A stretch of DNA of 36,981 nucleotides, taken from IMG/VR virus record IMGVR_UViG_2703718854_000003, one strand, 5' to 3'. The notes below the pieces were generated by a model. The model ran no database searches, was not told where the DNA came from, and saw only the letters and a program-made list of their open reading frames with translations. A program made the translations under genes and the position numbers. Source of the DNA: a virus (lineage: Duplodnaviria; Heunggongvirae; Uroviricota; Caudoviricetes). Positions 1 through 34,361 of this stretch are shown one piece after another (position 1 is the stretch's first letter; the number at the start of each line of letters is the position of its first letter).

Positions 1-1053
1 TTACGGGGTAATGCCAACCGCTGCCGCCACTTTGTCGCCACTTGGCAGCGTTGCCAGAGGATTGAAACGGAGCGCCGTTTCCAGATGATCCGGTGCTAGA
101 TGTGCGTAACGCATAGTCATTTTTATGTCGTGATGTCCGAGGATTTTTTGCAAAGCAAGGATATTTCCACCCGACATCATGAAATGCGCCGCAAACGTAT
201 GGCGCAGAACGTGTGTCAGTTGACCGCGAGGGAGCACGATAGACGTTTTTCCCATCACAGATAAAAATTGAAAATAGCAGTCTGTGAAGAAATTGAACCC
301 ATCAAGCGCCATGATCTCTTCGTAAAGTTCTTTACTGATAGGGATGCTTCTGTTTTTCTTCCCCTTCGTTCTTACAAAGGTAATTCGGTATTTGGTCACC
401 TGTGAGCGGGTAAGATTTACAGCTTCACGCCAGCGTGCGCCTGTGCTTAAGCATATCTTAACTACCAGTGCCAGAATTGGGTCCTGACGTTTGCAATCAG
501 CCAGTAATTCAACAATCTGCTCATGGGTAAGCCATGCCATCTCTTTTTCTGCGATGGTGAATTTTCGCATGTTCTCCAGTGGGTTCGGATACGACCATTC
601 GCCCAGGCGGGATAGTTCGCTAAAAACACTACTAAGATAGCTTTGCTCCAGGTTAATGGTGACCGGGCTTGCTCCTTTCTTCCATTTTTCGCTGAAGTAG
701 ATCTCTCCTGTCAGGCGTTTATCTCGATAGTGGGCAAACATTTTAGAGGTGAGATCGGTTGCAATGGGATTTCCCAGAGCGTCAACCATCAACAGCAATT
801 TGTCATAGACATGCTGCCCAGCTGTCAGAGATTTACCATGTAGTTTGAACCATAGCTCAACCACGTCTTTCAGTGTTCGACGATCCACTGATTCACCCAG
901 CCAGGGTTTTGCTTCGGTTTCTTCCATCGTGTGACGCTCAAAAGCCAGAGCTTCGCCTTTGGTGGCGAATTGTTTACGCACACGACGTCCACTACGTCCG
1001 GCAGGGTAACATTCGCAAAGCCATTTTCCTGTGGTGAGTTTTCGTACTGCCAT
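1..1053 (-). CDS. int: Tyrosine recombinase / phage integrase (complete, 350 aa)
   Basis: C-terminal catalytic region LRHTFAAHFMMSGGNILALQKILGHHDIKMTMRYAHL shows the R..H-x-x-R..Y pattern of tyrosine integrases. Stop codon occupies window positions 1-3; position is next to the immunity region as in P2/186. Confidence 0.9.
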   Translation of the reverse strand: MAVRKLTTGKWLCECYPAGRSGRRVRKQFATKGEALAFERHTMEETEAKPWLGESVDRRTLKDVVELWFKLHGKSLTAGQHVYDKLLLMVDALGNPIATDLTSKMFAHYRDKRLTGEIYFSEKWKKGASPVTINLEQSYLSSVFSELSRLGEWSYPNPLENMRKFTIAEKEMAWLTHEQIVELLADCKRQDPILALVVKICLSTGARWREAVNLTRSQVTKYRITFVRTKGKKNRSIPISKELYEEIMALDGFNFFTDCYFQFLSVMGKTSIVLPRGQLTHVLRHTFAAHFMMSGGNILALQKILGHHDIKMTMRYAHLAPDHLETALRFNPLATLPSGDKVAAAVGITP

Positions 1054-1078: not shown

Positions 1079-1139
1079 AAATTTAACTGTATATTTAAAC
1101 AGTTATCAATGTATGTTTAGGGTGAAATAAACATTGGCC

Positions 1140-2139: not shown

Positions 2140-3078
2140 TTAAATTTCCTTTGAAAAAACGCAACAACATTTTGCGATGGTTGTAATGTCTTCAAGCTTA
2201 CAAACAAAATCAGTTGTATCTGATGTGATTTTTACTTTTCCAACTGGAATTCTTGTTAATTTTCTTAAACTTACTTTACCTTCAATCTCAATCAACCAAC
2301 TACCATCTGAAACATCATCATATTCTGTATCTGCAATAAAGGTTTTTCCTTCTGCGGTAACTCCAATAGGTTTTTTCAATCCGGAAGGTATAAGCGTCTT
2401 GTCAAATGCTAAGTAGCCTTCATCATGTAATTTACCGTCAATGATTGTTTGGTGTTTAAGTTGGGCTACAGAGCTGGAATTATCGATAAATTTGGGGCCA
2501 TTGCCGTTTGTGAGCCAGAGTAATGAAGTTCCTGTTTCAAGAGCGCATTGAATGATCCAATCGCTAGGAAACGTGTCTCGTAAGTACCTGTTTGCTACAG
2601 TGCTTTTTGAAACCTGCAAATGGTTTGCTAGGGCTTGTCGGGTGCTAAAGCCGTAGGCTGCGACTAAGCGATCAATTGCCGCCTTCCCTCCTTTATTAGG
2701 ATTTATGCTGGTCTCGATTGGGAACTTTTGGGCTATTGAGTTAGTTCTATCCAGGTCATCAGATTTGGTATGGGCTAAACGTTCATCATTTAATAAAACT
2801 GAGGATGATTCACAGCTGATTCCCGATGCCAACCAGTCGATAGATGCGCCGGTCTCTATACTGCAAATTATCACCCAGTCAGCAGGAAATGTGTCACGAG
2901 CATACCTGTTAGCCATCGTGCTTTGTGAGATACCCAGATGATTGCAAAATGCTTGCCGCGAAGTAAAACCATACGCAACAAGTATACGCTCAATTACTTT
3001 CTGTCCCCCACGGTTTTGCATTATTGAAGTTTTTAGACTCTCGCTAATATGGCGAAATGTGTTTTTTTGAGTTGACAT
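2140..3078 (-). CDS. cI: CI-type immunity repressor (phage 186 CI family) with tandemly duplicated N-terminal HTH domain
   Basis: Two consecutive copies of the motif (V/A)IxRLVAAYGF(T/S)(S/T)RQA..NHL..S.ST.ANRY.RDTFP.DW(I/V)I.C(S/A).ETG.S..WL (roughly aa 27-84 and 134-191), then a C-terminal domain (SDGSWLIEIEGKVSLRKLTRIPVGKV) resembling 186 CI as I recall it. Divergent from the Apl-like gene. Confidence 0.75.
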   Translation of the reverse strand: MSTQKNTFRHISESLKTSIMQNRGGQKVIERILVAYGFTSRQAFCNHLGISQSTMANRYARDTFPADWVIICSIETGASIDWLASGISCESSSVLLNDERLAHTKSDDLDRTNSIAQKFPIETSINPNKGGKAAIDRLVAAYGFSTRQALANHLQVSKSTVANRYLRDTFPSDWIIQCALETGTSLLWLTNGNGPKFIDNSSSVAQLKHQTIIDGKLHDEGYLAFDKTLIPSGLKKPIGVTAEGKTFIADTEYDDVSDGSWLIEIEGKVSLRKLTRIPVGKVKITSDTTDFVCKLEDITTIAKCCCVFSKEI

Positions 3079-3166
3079 AACCGTTATGAGATCCTAATCT
3101 CCGTTTTGTGAAGTTCTGGTCACAATTCAAACCGGCTCACCACAAGCCAATAGGAGATGTTGCATC
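3079..3166. promoter_or_regulatory. Lysis-lysogeny switch intergenic region (divergent repressor/early promoters and operators, not resolved)
   Basis: 88-bp gap between divergent cI and apl/cox-like genes; contains short inverted repeat GAGAT-N4-ATCTC. Promoter and operator positions not determined. Confidence 0.4.
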
Positions 3167-8328: not shown

Positions 8329-8348
8329 TACTGTAAATATTAACAGTG
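8329..8348 (+). promoter_or_regulatory. LexA box (SOS operator) overlapping a sigma70-like promoter
   Basis: TACTGTAAATATTAACAGTG matches CTGT-N8-ACAG exactly (CTGT 8331-8334, ACAG 8343-8346); TTTACA (8306-8311) and TATACT (8327-8332) are candidate -35/-10 elements. Confidence 0.7.
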
Positions 8349-8390
8349 GTTATGCATACAGTATTGCTTGTGGTGTCATAGGAGGAAAGA

Positions 8391-8578
8391 TGCAGGACTA
8401 TTTTTGGGAGTCTTTGAAGCTCCAACGCATTGATTTTTTTCTTAAGCTTGTAGCGGCTAGTGAGTGTAGTGATGAAGAGAAGGGGTTGGCCCTGCAGTGG
8501 GTTTCTGAACTGACAGATGAACTCATGGCAAAAATCAGAAGCCACGAATACAACCGCTCAATGGATGTCATCAGCTGA
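8391..8578 (+). CDS. Hypothetical small protein, first gene of the LexA-controlled operon (possible Tum-like antirepressor component)
   Basis: ATG at 8391 preceded by GGAGGAAAG; 62 aa. The Tum-like role is inferred from position only. Confidence 0.45.
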
Positions 8579-8588
8579 GGGGACTTTT

Positions 8589-8822
8589 ATGCGCATTGAA
8601 ATAATGATCGATAAAGAGCAGAAGATTAGCCAGTCTACCCTGGACGCCCTTGAATCCGAGCTTTACCGCAATCTGCGCCCCCTATATCCCAAAACGGTAA
8701 TTCGTATCCGTAAAGGTAGCTCTAACGGTGTGGAACTGACCGGACTGCAACTGGACGAAGAAAGGAAGCAAGTGATGAAAATTATGCAGAAGGTGTGGGA
8801 AGACGACAGCTGGCTGCATTAA
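8589..8822 (+). CDS. DinI-family protein
   Basis: 78 aa; MRIEIMIDKEQ...ALESELYRNL...KIMQKVWEDDSWL resembles E. coli DinI (MRIEV...ALAGELSRRI...EILQETWESADDWF) as I recall it; ATG preceded by GAGGGGA. Confidence 0.7.
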   Translation: MRIEIMIDKEQKISQSTLDALESELYRNLRPLYPKTVIRIRKGSSNGVELTGLQLDEERKQVMKIMQKVWEDDSWLH

Positions 8823-9092: not shown

Positions 9093-9308
9093 ATGTCAAG
9101 CATCGCCGCATTTAGCCTGGGTAACCCAGTTGAACGTCTGGCAAGGGTTCTTAAAGAGAACCAGGACAAACTCAATCTTAGTAAAGATGGTTTTGTGTCC
9201 GTAGACTTGTCTAACAAAAGAGCAATGGATGCCATCAAGGCACAGATGGATAAGCTTGAAGGCATCAAAACGAGCACTGTAAAAGAGAAAACTAATAGAA
9301 CCAGATAA
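9093..9308 (+). CDS. Hypothetical small protein (71 aa)
   Basis: Strong SD (AAAGGGGGAG) 3-12 nt upstream of ATG; stop overlaps the start of the next gene (TAATG). Confidence 0.55.
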   Translation: MSSIAAFSLGNPVERLARVLKENQDKLNLSKDGFVSVDLSNKRAMDAIKAQMDKLEGIKTSTVKEKTNRTR

Positions 9309-10150
9309 TGGCAACATTACTTTTAGCAGTGATTTTGGTTAGTGGTTTTATTTATGTAAACCTATCACTTTCAACAAGATACCGATATAAGCGTTCCAAC
9401 GGCTGGGACGCTTATTTTTTTGTGGCTGCCTGGGGTATCGTTTTTTTTCTCCTTGGCGGTTTTTTCACCTTTATTTTGAACGTCAGCGGAGGGTTTCGTT
9501 GGCTGGCTAATGCCTTGAATCTAACACCTGACAGTTTTAATGGCATGTTGTCTTCATCGAAAGACAAACTTCAAAGAATAAATGAAATCAAACAGATAGC
9601 ATGGGTTATGATTTCAATTGTTCTCGCTGCGATTTCAGGTTTTGGAAATAAGTTACGCACATCACGTGGAGATCGTCGCTGGGATGCCTTAGCTAAAGCT
9701 GTGGGTAATAACGCTTTCGAATCATTACTCATGGAAGCGTCCGCAAGACAGTTTCCGATCATAGCAACTCTGTCGTCTCGCAAAATCTATGTTGGTCTTG
9801 TTACTTGTCCGGCGTTAGAAAACGGGCTTTCAGAACACCTTGAACTTCTCCCGATGTTAAGCGGATATCGGGATAAAGATGATCTAACGATTAGTATCAC
9901 GACTAACTATCACCAACATTATCTTGATAGTGGTGTGATAAGTGGAATGTCTCGGCTTAATATCGAAGATTTCCGTGTGCTCATACCAAAAGATGAGGTT
10001 GAAACAATTTCGTTTTTTGATACTGAGACATATAACAAATTTAAAGAAAATGAAGCCAGGGATAGAAAGAACTGTCGAAAGATTGGTAGTAAAAGTGCAT
10101 CTTCGCGCAGCAAGCGTGCAGCAGATGCTGAGTCAAATGATCGTGCATGA
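9308..10150 (+). CDS. Hypothetical membrane protein (three N-terminal TM helices plus C-terminal soluble domain)
   Basis: Hydrophobic segments LLLAVILVSGFIYV, FFVAAWGIVFFLLGGFFTFIL, IAWVMISIVLAAISGF; translationally coupled to the 71-aa ORF; followed by an intrinsic terminator. Confidence 0.6.
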   Translation: MATLLLAVILVSGFIYVNLSLSTRYRYKRSNGWDAYFFVAAWGIVFFLLGGFFTFILNVSGGFRWLANALNLTPDSFNGMLSSSKDKLQRINEIKQIAWVMISIVLAAISGFGNKLRTSRGDRRWDALAKAVGNNAFESLLMEASARQFPIIATLSSRKIYVGLVTCPALENGLSEHLELLPMLSGYRDKDDLTISITTNYHQHYLDSGVISGMSRLNIEDFRVLIPKDEVETISFFDTETYNKFKENEARDRKNCRKIGSKSASSRSKRAADAESNDRA

Positions 10151-10319: not shown

Positions 10320-10500
10320 TATGTTAGTGCTAGCCTAGCTGTGCCCTTAGCAGGAAAGTACATTCAATATGTTACTTTCTAGTGGTTGGTGTTTAGCCAA
10401 CTCGTATGGATTGCTTGGTATCTCGACACAAGTTAGCCTTGTGTCATTTATAGACACCAGGCTAACTTGTGTCTCGGGAACTCTTGTATGGGCATTAATT
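10320..10500 (+). ncRNA. Candidate retron msr-msd non-coding RNA (boundaries approximate)
   Basis: Structured non-coding stretch immediately upstream of the effector-RT pair. Small stem-loops (AAAGTACA-TTCAATA-TGTTACTTT at 10346-10369; GTTGG-TGTTTAG-CCAAC) are followed by a long hairpin at 10425-10473 (14-bp perfect stem GACACAAGTTAGCC/GGCTAACTTGTGTC enclosing inner stem GTGTC/GACAC), typical of an msd. The flanking a1/a2 inverted repeats could not be identified. Confidence 0.45.
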
Positions 10501-10503
10501 GTT

Positions 10504-11421
10504 ATGTGGTTTAAACATCCTAGATATTTACGAGCAAAAGAAAATTTTATTTCAAGTTTTTTTCCAAGTAACTTGAATTCTTTTAATTATATCCTGCCAA
10601 AAGTATTATTTATTTGTGGAGGAGATGAGACTTATTGTTCAAATAGAGGGATGCTGGAAAAATATATTGCTAAGCATCATAAAGAATTTGTTACTTTTCG
10701 AGCAGAATTAGCATGGGAAGTAATTAGCAATTTAGGAACTCATAGTAATGTGAATGCGCTATCACTTGAAGAATGGCTTGCGGATTTTTCTGATGTGGTA
10801 ATTATTCTCGTAGAGAGTTATGGCACTGTAGCTGAATTGGGCGCATTTTCATTAAGTCCTGTTTTACGTAAAAAACTTCTTCCTATATTAGATAAAAAGT
10901 TTGAAAGTCATAAGTCATTTATCAATACAGGGCCCGTAAAATGGGTTGATAGTGAATCCAAATTTGGCCCTACAATCTATACTGAATTTGAGACAATTTT
11001 AACGTGTATGCCTAAAATAAATGAAAGGCTAAATAGGAAAGTTCAATCAAACATAACTAATACAAATTCAATAGGTGATTACAAATATTCACCAAAAATT
11101 TTTTTATTTTTTGTGCTCGTTGTTATATCTTCTTTAGGTCCAATAACAATTCCTGAGATTATTAATATCACAGGTAGGTTGATAAATTATAAAATTAATA
11201 AAAATATTTCATTTGTTGTTTCTATTGGAGTTGCCCTTGGGATTTTTAAGGAAAGTCGATTTGAGGGCGTGACCCATTATTCATGTGTCGATTATATTAA
11301 ATTTTTTAATCATGAAAAGATGAAAGATTTAGTTGAAAGTATTCAACGAAGTAGAGCTAGATCATTATCCGATTTAATAATGATATCTAAATTCAAAGCA
11401 GAATTAGAAAGGATCATGTGA
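10504..11421 (+). CDS. Candidate retron effector: NDT-like (nucleoside deoxyribosyltransferase-like N-glycosidase) domain plus C-terminal putative DNA-binding domain
   Basis: AT-rich gene directly abutting the RT. Motifs KVLFICGGDE and DVVIILVESYGTVAELGAFS resemble NDT-like folds found in type II retron effectors. ORF-track start 10369 overlaps the hairpin, so start placed at in-frame ATG 10504 (10651 also possible). Domain assignment is from motif memory. Confidence 0.5.
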   Translation: MWFKHPRYLRAKENFISSFFPSNLNSFNYILPKVLFICGGDETYCSNRGMLEKYIAKHHKEFVTFRAELAWEVISNLGTHSNVNALSLEEWLADFSDVVIILVESYGTVAELGAFSLSPVLRKKLLPILDKKFESHKSFINTGPVKWVDSESKFGPTIYTEFETILTCMPKINERLNRKVQSNITNTNSIGDYKYSPKIFLFFVLVVISSLGPITIPEIINITGRLINYKINKNISFVVSIGVALGIFKESRFEGVTHYSCVDYIKFFNHEKMKDLVESIQRSRARSLSDLIMISKFKAELERIM

Positions 11422-11422
11422 T

Positions 11423-12352
11423 ATGTTAATTGAGTATCTAGCTAAAGTTTTACTGTTAGAAGCTGATTTTATATTAAAAGTTGCAAATGATGCTAACTCG
11501 CATTATGGTAAATTTTCTGTACCTAAAAAAGGCGGTGGGACAAGAATCGTCTATCAGCCCTCTAAAGAATTAAAAGTTTTGCAGAGATTACTTCATGATA
11601 ATGTTCTGTCGAAATTGCCGATTCATCCAAATGCTGTAGCATATCAGCAGGGTTCATCAGTGTTCAAACATGCAAGCATTCACAAAGCTAAACGTTTTAT
11701 GCTTAAGATGGACTTTGAAGGTTTTTTTGATTCAATTAAGAAAAGTGATGTTGAGAGATTTATAAACGACAACAAGCATTTCTTCAGTGATGATTGGTCA
11801 AAGGATGATACTGATTTGCTGGTGAAAATAGTATGCTTTAACGGGAGACTGACTATGGGTGCTGTTAGTTCCCCTGTGGTAAGCAATGCTATATGCTATG
11901 AATTAGATCATATATTGAATGAATTTTGTCTTTCAAAAGGTATAACATATACACGCTATGCTGATGATATGTACTTCTCAACAAACGAAGAAAATGTATT
12001 GAAGCAAATACCACCTTTTTTACGCTCGAATTTAAAAAATTTGAAATACCCATCAAAACTATGGATTAATAGAAAAAAGACACTGCATATGTCAAAGAAA
12101 AATAAAATGATGGTTACGGGTGTGACTTTGACAACAGATGGTGGAGTATCCTTAGGGAGAGATAAAAAAAGGATGGTTAAATCGCTTATTTTTAAATGGG
12201 AGGCTCTTGATGAGAAGAAAAGGCTATTTCTTCAAGGATATTTATCGTATTGCAAAAGTGTTGAGCCATTATTTATTAATAGGCTTTGTGCGAAATATTC
12301 ATCAGAGCTGATTGATGAAATCCAGAGATATCAACCTGTAGTATCAGAATAA
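11423..12352 (+). CDS. Retron-type reverse transcriptase
   Basis: RT motifs in order: PKKGGGTRIVYQPS (motif 1/2), LKMDFEGFFDSI (motif A), SSPVVSN (motif B'), YTRYADDMYF (motif C, YADD) and the retron-typical VTG triplet (KMMVTGVTL). About 309 aa, similar in layout to the Ec86 RT. AAAGGA SD; start 2 nt after the effector stop. Confidence 0.8.
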   Translation: MLIEYLAKVLLLEADFILKVANDANSHYGKFSVPKKGGGTRIVYQPSKELKVLQRLLHDNVLSKLPIHPNAVAYQQGSSVFKHASIHKAKRFMLKMDFEGFFDSIKKSDVERFINDNKHFFSDDWSKDDTDLLVKIVCFNGRLTMGAVSSPVVSNAICYELDHILNEFCLSKGITYTRYADDMYFSTNEENVLKQIPPFLRSNLKNLKYPSKLWINRKKTLHMSKKNKMMVTGVTLTTDGGVSLGRDKKRMVKSLIFKWEALDEKKRLFLQGYLSYCKSVEPLFINRLCAKYSSELIDEIQRYQPVVSE

Positions 12353-33817: not shown

Positions 33818-33907
33818 TTCTTCGCAATGGAGAACTTTTAAGTTTGCAAAATGGAATAATACGGTATCATTATTGTGAATTTAGCAAAAATGGGGAGAAC
33901 TCGAAAA

Positions 33908-34126
33908 ATGATGATTTGCCCACTGTGTGGAAGTGCCGCCCATACTCGCAGCAGTTTTCAGGTATCTTCATTGACCAAAGAGCGTTACAACCAGTGCCAG
34001 AACATTAACTGCAGCCATACTTTTGTTACCCATGAAACTTTTGTTCGTTCGATTGCAACGCCAAAAGAGTCAAATCCGGTTCAGCCGCATCCAATGAAAT
34101 CAGGACAGGTGGTGCTCTCTCTTTGA
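33908..34126 (+). CDS. ogr: Ogr/Delta-family zinc-finger late transcription activator
   Basis: MMICPLCGSAAHTRSS...KERYNQCQNINCSHTF matches the P2 Ogr C2-C2 finger (CPLC...H.R...KERYHQCQNVNCSATF) as I recall it; start at ATG 33908 or 33911 rather than 33875. Confidence 0.85.
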   Translation: MMICPLCGSAAHTRSSFQVSSLTKERYNQCQNINCSHTFVTHETFVRSIATPKESNPVQPHPMKSGQVVLSL

Positions 34127-34205
34127 CGCTGCCGCCATTTTGTCGCCATCGTTAAAAAGCAGTGCTTCTAACATCATGATTTTAAAAGGCATAAATTTCA
34201 GACAA

Positions 34206-34249
34206 CAAAAAACCCATCAACCTTGAACCGAAATGGCGGGGTTGATGGG
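34206..34249 (-). terminator. Terminator-like hairpin downstream of ybjL (minus strand), also a candidate prophage/host junction landmark
   Basis: 10-bp stem CCCATCAACC/GGTTGATGGG; on the minus strand it is followed by TTTTTT. Loop is long (17 nt). Confidence 0.45.
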
Positions 34250-34361
34250 CTCCACAAAATGGGGACATCAAAGAAAAGCAGTGGCACTAATTAAGACTGA
34301 TGCCCTGCGGAAAAGTTCTGCGGTTGTGCAAAAAAATTTCATTTTCAGGGCAACTTCAGTT

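Follow-up and report, generated by a model that had tools for sequence, protein, structure and literature searches.

The stretch of DNA analyzed here (36,981 nucleotides, hereafter "the window") is a 186/P2-like prophage. Its genes follow one another as int, an AT-rich ORF, cI, an apl-like gene, cII (PF06892), a DUF5347 gene, a Dam methylase gene, the gene for replication protein A, a DinI-like ORF, a retron, the late genes, D and B/ogr, after which the host gene rybB is found (Table 1). [quoted passage not shown] The gene is read from an ATG at 3078 to a stop at 2140, and its product is placed by PHROGs among the transcriptional repressors. It is intact in the 20 E. coli complete genomes listed of the 24 with a full-length match at ≥99%, with an identity of 98.9–100%.

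Table 1. Features of the window referred to in the text; positions are counted from its first nucleotide.
Feature	Position	Strand	Remarks
int	1-1053	-	
Second LexA-box-like palindrome	1087-1102		CTGTATATTTAAACAG; between the int start (1053) and the stop of the AT-rich ORF (1140)
AT-rich ORF, 329 aa	1140-2129	-	about 35% GC
cI, two-headed 186-type immunity repressor	2140-3078	-	312 aa + stop
Hinge (aa 197-206) and 186-type C-terminal oligomerisation domain (aa 207-312)	2143-2490	-	
N2, second Phage_CI_repr HTH (aa 131-196)	2491-2688	-	recognition helix SKSTVANRYLRD
Pre-N2 arm (aa 119-130)	2689-2724	-	FPIETSINPNKG; homologous to the S-type CI N-terminal tail (YPNEIKINPNQG)
Inter-head linker (aa 88-118)	2725-2817	-	unconserved, predicted disordered
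N1, first Phage_CI_repr HTH (aa 22-87)	2818-3015	-	recognition helix SQSTMANRYARD
N-terminal arm (aa 1-21)	3016-3078	-	MSTQKNTFRHISESLKTSIMQ; common to L003-type single-domain CIs; AF2 pLDDT 39-57
Predicted lytic promoter pR	3072-3100	+	-35 TTGACA 3072-3077, 17-nt spacer, -10 TAATCT 3095-3100; by eye and conservation
Candidate half-site a	3084-3091	+	TTATGAGA; in the spacer just before the -10; putative role
Candidate operator half-site b	3104-3115	+	TTTTGTGAAGTT; overlaps the predicted pR start
Element c	3119-3127	+	GTCACAATT; inverted relative to a and b
Element d	3136-3148	+	CTCACCACAAGCC; inverted relative to a and b
apl-like gene, 73 aa	3167-3388	+	divergent from cI
LexA box and DinI-like ORF	8331-8822	+	LexA box CTGTAAATATTAACAG (8331-8346, perfect), then ORF 8517-8822 (PF06183, 1e-22)
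Type II-A retron	10369-12352	+	low GC (31-38%)
Retron NDT effector	10369-11421	+	PADLOC NDT_II-A 1e-53
Retron reverse transcriptase	11423-12352	+	RT_II-A 4e-105; Pfam RVT_1
Putative promoter of the late activator B	33840-33885		TTGTGAAT directly after a TATCAT -10
B/ogr	33908-34126		
RybB, host sRNA gene	34204-34282	-	Rfam 105 bits

The AT-rich ORF, placed directly downstream of cI and upstream of int, encodes a product that looks coiled-coil and membrane-like, with homologues in the same slot of two related loci (L001 and L002), and gave neither an above-threshold Pfam match nor a PADLOC match. The slot between cI and int is one that we take to be a known hotspot for accessory or defence genes in P2-like phages. 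The retron is situated between the replication gene and the portal gene; no Rfam match was obtained for the msr/msd RNA expected upstream of it, and the ORF that neighbours it (9308-10150, 280 aa) gave no family match. At the right end, RybB lies about 80 bp beyond B/ogr, followed by a gene for a YbjL-like transporter; since RybB is found just past B/ogr, the prophage right end abuts rybB, which is likely the attachment site. Two LexA-like boxes are present in the window against 0.5 expected by chance, namely the perfect one ahead of the DinI-like ORF and the palindrome between int and the AT-rich ORF. By analogy with 186, the DinI-like ORF is likely a Tum-type SOS antirepressor acting on the CI of the window.

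The canonical plan of this repressor family comprises one N-terminal domain (NTD), a short linker and one C-terminal domain in about 190–210 aa; the CI of the window has two NTDs in 312 aa. It belongs to a well-known repressor family and is not a new kind of system. The preliminary description, made from the sequence alone, had proposed two 186-CI-type helix-turn-helix (HTH) motifs followed by a single C-terminal domain, and this architecture is borne out by Pfam and by the 186 CI structure: PF07022 (Phage_CI_repr) matches two stretches of the protein (E 5e-55), PF16452 (Phage_CI_C) matches aa 207–305 (E 1.5e-30), and 2fjr covers aa 134–310 only (E 2e-32), so that the first head, N1, is an extra domain on an otherwise complete CI. 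The internal repeat (aa 15–86 against aa 121–192) scores 244, compared with 25 ± 4 for the shuffled sequence. N1 and the second head, N2, are 57% identical both at the amino-acid and at the nucleotide level, a divergence which rules out an assembly duplication, as had already been argued. None of the codons between aa 88 and 131 is ATG, GTG or TTG, and a short form of CI would therefore have no obvious internal start.

The same description had spoken of a duplicated domain, a view that did not hold. Two separate lineages of single-domain CIs, which we will refer to as "L003-type" and "S-type", account for the two parts of the protein. N1 and the N-terminal arm are about 88% identical, counted from the sequences, to the sole DNA-binding domain of the L003-type CIs (about 208 aa; P0098 from Salmonella and relatives from Klebsiella and Xenorhabdus) and have the same recognition helix, against the 57% that relates N1 to N2 of its own chain. 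On the other hand, residues ~118–312 are an almost complete S-type CI (about 198 aa; P0026 from Kluyvera, L002 and L048), ~77% identical to the 199-aa Kluyvera protein (P0026). The arms are co-linear with each parent: residues 1–87 follow the N-terminus of the L003-type CI, and from "KFPIETSINPNKGG..." onwards the protein is co-linear with "KYPNEIKINPNQGG..." of the S-type CI, from residue ~5 of the latter to its end. The DNA tells the same two parts apart by BLAST, since nt 217–486 of the cI region (beginning 34 nt before the cI ATG and reaching codon ~79) match L003 at 76%, and nt 601–1288 (from codon ~117 to past the stop) match the S-type locus L002 at 77%. Thus, N1 being orthologous to the DNA-binding domain of another CI lineage, the repressor joins two immunity lineages by fusion.

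When 166 NTDs were placed in a neighbour-joining tree, built on 66 residues and not bootstrapped, 36 of 47 N1 domains fell into one clade, whose sister is formed by nine single-domain CIs of the L003/P0098 type (~207 aa); the N2 domains are interspersed among the single NTDs of S-type CIs (~198 aa). Mean identity from N2 to single NTDs is 0.75, compared with 0.59 between N1 and N2 of the same protein. In the other N1 lineages, three or four groups in this tree, the head is again attached to an S-like N2 at this junction, which suggests, from these sequences, either that the fusion recurred or that the N1 cassette was swapped later.

The constraint on the different regions of the protein is highly unequal. 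Mean pairwise identity among the 31 two-headed proteins of the main clade is 0.82 for N1 and 0.76 for N2, 0.36 for the C-terminal domain, 0.19 for the hinge and 0.13 for the linker, and the recognition helices are almost invariant in this clade (SQSTMANRYARD in N1 and SKSTLANRYLRD in N2). When the cI of the window was compared with two close relatives (L008 and L001), dN/dS amounted to 0.03–0.06 for N1, 0.07–0.08 for N2, about 0.2 for the C-terminal domain and 0.7–2.3 for the linker. Both N1 and N2 are under strong purifying selection (dN/dS 0.03–0.08), and the value of N1 contradicts the possibility, raised at the outset, that only the distal part of the gene is translated. An AF2 model of the monomer, obtained with a 63-sequence alignment, gave pLDDT values of 79–90 for N1, about 90 for N2 and about 93 for the C-terminal domain, which superposes on that of 186 CI (2fkd_A) with a TM score of 0.93 and an rmsd of 1.6 Å. 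Residues 90–125 are without predicted structure (pLDDT about 30), and a disordered linker of ~35 residues is accordingly predicted by the model; the pTM of the whole is 0.43, and the model therefore has no fixed inter-domain arrangement.

The -35 of the predicted pR overlaps the cI start codon, and the layout of this promoter is conserved in all the related loci. A consensus promoter scan returned nothing; it missed pR because the -10 matches the consensus at only 3 of 6 positions. Two candidate half-sites accompany this promoter. The position of half-site a keeps TTNTGNGATCC across CI lineages, and half-site b is diagnostic of two-domain and L003-type phages. Half-sites a (3084-3091) and b (3104-3111) are exactly 20 bp apart, a two-turn phasing which is that expected for the 186-type wheel (PMC3675496). 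L003-type phages contain TGTGAA-like direct repeats every 18–21 bp, of which the window retains two (a and b). The half-site assignments are ones that we infer from conservation and co-inheritance; as a and b coincide in part with the -10 and with the ribosome-binding region of cI on the opposite strand, there are other possible causes for their conservation, which by itself is no proof of repressor binding. Elements c and d also occur in S-type phages and are absent where Apl differs, even with the S-type palindrome present; their presence thus goes with the type of Apl rather than with that of CI. Judging from this sequence pattern, they probably belong to Apl or to pL, and they were discarded as N2 sites for the same reason.

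The apl-cII backbone of S-type phages and the right-hand half of their switch region are those of the window; S-type phages have no N1, and present at pR (GTACCCAATTGGGTAC) a 16-bp palindrome, GTNCCC-N4-GGGNAC, right after the -10, with a CCAATTGG core as in the central 186 pR operator. Two-domain phages show the reverse: on the same apl/cII backbone the S-type palindrome is missing, the region is 7 bp shorter and TTTTGTGAAGTT is found instead. Along the 900 nt upstream of cI, the fixed differences between S-type and two-domain phages all fall within the first 63 nt. Among loci of the same Apl type, the A-type palindrome accompanies single-domain CIs exclusively (21 unique sequences), and TGTGAWG exclusively two-domain CIs (16 unique sequences); an A-type palindrome was not found at the pR of the window. 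These observations support the earlier suggestion of a changed operator or immunity specificity, as the pR operator differs between two-domain and single-domain relatives whose apl/cII backbone is otherwise identical.

From the -10 through site b, the consensus of two-domain phages agrees with the L003-type at 19/20 positions and with the S-type at 11/20, whereas along the following 30 nt the agreement is 8/30 with the L003-type and 27/30 with the S-type. Thus, a contiguous L003-type block, comprising the N1 coding region, the pR core and site b, sits in an S-type phage. In L003-type loci the pR core is that of the window, as is the TGTGAA element following the -10; these loci differ from the window in having their own C-terminal domain directly after the head, another Apl, and two further direct TGTGAA-like repeats. 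The recognition helix SKSTLANRY is common to single-domain CIs with differing palindromes.

Further operator sites were sought throughout the window. A cognate site for N2 was not found in the phage's own switch, and the S-type palindrome, allowing ≤2 mismatches, gave 13 matches in the window against 11 expected, i.e., chance level. One of the S-type-like sequences, GGTCTCGATTGGGAAC at 2710-2725, lies inside cI about 360 bp to the left of pR and has a perfect right half and 2 mismatches overall; considered as an operator whose position recalls 186 FL, it was rejected, being of chance-frequency quality and not conserved in relatives. TTGTGAA shows no enrichment, occurring 6 times in the window against 7.4 expected, and phased direct TGTGA pairs elsewhere in it are at chance level, as are the 186-type B palindromes (one match for TTCAC-N-GTGAA and none for the reverse arrangement). 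No FL/FR-like distal sites were found, and the related loci contain no positionally conserved extra site except one inside apl, also present in S-type phages. A repeat finder applied to the switch region returned chance-level pairs only; a 10-nt inverted repeat in this region was dismissed, as it arises since cI and apl both encode I-E-R. The putative late-activator B promoter (pB) was also considered as a covarying CI site and set aside, its region being identical in two-domain and S-type phages, and hence non-discriminating; if CI represses pB, the two-headed and the S-type CI must recognise the same site.

Two-headed repressors are not restricted to this prophage. Among the best 120 protein clusters, 49 have two NTDs (290–330 aa, with identities down to 42%), from E. 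coli, Klebsiella, Citrobacter, Enterobacter, Salmonella, Kosakonia and Edwardsiella, and the source annotations name them only "phage repressor protein CI". GenBank Klebsiella phages, among them ST11-OXA245phi3.1 and 4LV2017, encode versions of 311–313 aa, and in IMG/VR one scan gave at least 34 contigs with the two-headed gene, to which a second scan added more. A single-domain CI is found in 46 of the 80 loci examined, and S-type phages are the commonest relatives in the same hosts. We found no mention of a two-NTD 186-type CI in full-text searches of the literature or in the comparative paper on P2/186 regulatory regions (PMC3448106); the two-headed CI is common in enterobacterial prophages and databases, yet apparently undescribed.

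Other arrangements of CI heads, which illustrate the material from which such fusions can be made, were also observed. In one viral contig (L020, 1875-3424), a canonical single-domain cI is situated at pR and is followed, after ~50 bp, by a two-headed cI and then by a 505-aa ORF; four further contigs (L109, L110, L111 and L114) share this arrangement, making five in all. In such loci, the role of primary repressor of the switch does not fall to the two-headed protein. In another locus (L046, 2360-3516), a 198-aa ORF with two HTHs and no C-terminal domain shares 4 nt with the start of a complete single-domain cI of 187 aa, giving three CI heads in a row; the two-head ORF may represent an intermediate of recombination, or a DNA-binding protein in its own right.

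The window repressor can be set beside several known systems. 186 CI (192 aa; PDB 2FJR and 2FKD) has the same two Pfam families and the same position opposite apl-cII, and the likeness extends to the predicted C-terminal fold (TM 0.93 to 2fkd) and to the presence of a Tum-like SOS antirepressor gene; N2 and the C-terminal domain of the window protein are in the 30–40% identity range with 186 CI. Unlike the latter, the CI of the window has an extra N-terminal HTH head and a ~35-aa disordered tether. The operators also differ: 186 pR has an A-type inverted repeat (TCTCAATTGGGAGA) between the -35 and the -10, and the window pR has phased TTNTGNGA half-sites instead; 186 has distal FL/FR palindromes, and none were found in the window. 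[quoted passage not shown] In engineered single-chain 434 repressors, one polypeptide with two DNA-reading modules binds a single site as a monomer. A monomeric two-domain mycobacteriophage repressor likewise acts as a monomer on a single site (PMC9283540). The window CI resembles both in having two DNA-reading modules per chain, but unlike them keeps an oligomerising domain; a dimer would therefore present four heads, and a 186-style 14-mer 28.

The reading toward which we lean, with modest confidence, is that of a functional chimeric CI, in which an L003-type N1 head was added to a complete S-type CI, the matching operator was co-acquired, and N1 reads the phage's own pR. A whole S-type CI, extending over aa ~118–312 with its arm, N2, hinge and oligomerising C-terminal domain, would have gained N1 and its arm (aa 1–87) at its N-terminus, the two parts being connected by a disordered tether some 35 residues long. 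The cassette of N1 coding region, pR core and TGTGAA operator would have been acquired as a single contiguous DNA block, and through this acquisition pR would have obtained an operator suited to N1, and the palindrome corresponding to N2 would have been lost. The C-terminal domain would build dimers and higher oligomers, as in 186 CI, and the N1 heads would maintain lysogeny by occupying the 20-bp-phased TTNTGNGA half-sites over the -10 and the pR start. N2, in its canonical position beside the C-terminal domain, would stay an active DNA-binding head, which may add contacts on the wrapped DNA, repress incoming S-type phages, or both. Points that count against this reading are the failure to find a cognate N2 site in the switch, the lack of TTGTGAA enrichment, and the occurrence of SKSTLANRY in CIs with unlike palindromes. 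Induction would proceed through the LexA-controlled Tum-like antirepressor and not by self-cleavage. Such a route is probable because CI is without an S24 signature (no match to Peptidase_S24, PF00717, at E≤1 in Pfam); its C-terminal domain has a distant fold likeness to LexA C-terminal domains (TM about 0.6, 9–15% identity).

A related possibility, which we put forward tentatively, is that the protein is a bispecific immunity repressor, with N1 silencing its own L003-type operator and N2 together with the C-terminal domain silencing the S-type pR, the two-headed gene also circulating as an accessory second repressor. If this were true, one protein would make a lysogen immune to two or three heteroimmune phage groups, and the accessory two-headed cI found behind a canonical cI in L020-type loci would turn the heads into stackable superinfection-exclusion modules.

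Three other explanations are less well supported than the chimeric repressor. Tandem duplication within the gene, followed by divergence, would make of the two heads a covalent pseudo-dimer sitting on both halves of one operator, in the manner of the engineered single-chain 434 repressors; N1 and N2 are clearly homologous (57% identity), and an inverted pair, TGTGA-N8-TCACA at 3107-3124, occupies the same dyad position as the S-type palindrome with a spacing of 7 to 9 bp across the family that a flexible tether could tolerate. We nonetheless consider this origin unlikely, given that N1 is far nearer to L003-type NTDs (about 88%) than to N2 and that the DNA is a mosaic, that the right arm of the pair is element c, also present in S-type phages and tracking the Apl type, and that AF2 gave no fixed packing of N1 against N2 (pTM 0.43).

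The remaining two would each leave a single working head. If only N2 and the C-terminal domain work, N1 would be a regulatory appendage that reads no operator, acting as an antirepressor decoy or sensor, or by autoinhibition. N2 with the C-terminal domain does constitute a complete canonical CI, and the prophage encodes a Tum-like antirepressor; the phage's own pR, however, lacks the S-type palindrome and has an L003-type element co-inherited with N1, whose recognition helix is identical to that of the L003-type CIs, where it belongs to the sole DNA-binding domain, which makes this proposal quite unlikely. The opposite view, that N2 is a vestigial fusion spacer and the protein acts as an L003-type CI with a long neck, would agree with the failure to find a cognate N2 site in the phage's own switch region, but it is highly improbable in view of the dN/dS of 0.07–0.08 and of a recognition helix that is nearly invariant while the C-terminal domains are only 36% identical; the true linker, in contrast, evolves freely.

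186 CI is the reference system for cooperative gene control by a protein wheel that wraps DNA, and a natural version with doubled heads, half of them on long flexible tethers, raises questions on how operator grammar adapts and how immunity specificities originate. For the latter, the data point to an evolutionary route in which head and operator move as one DNA cassette, stacked onto an existing repressor. A demonstrated bispecific immunity, or a 28-headed wheel, would raise the importance of the finding. If N2 still reads the operators of its parent lineage, the prophages with this gene would keep out a group of related phages that is very common; such exclusion would bear on the design of orthogonal or bispecific synthetic repressors, and also on prophage competition in E. 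coli and Klebsiella.
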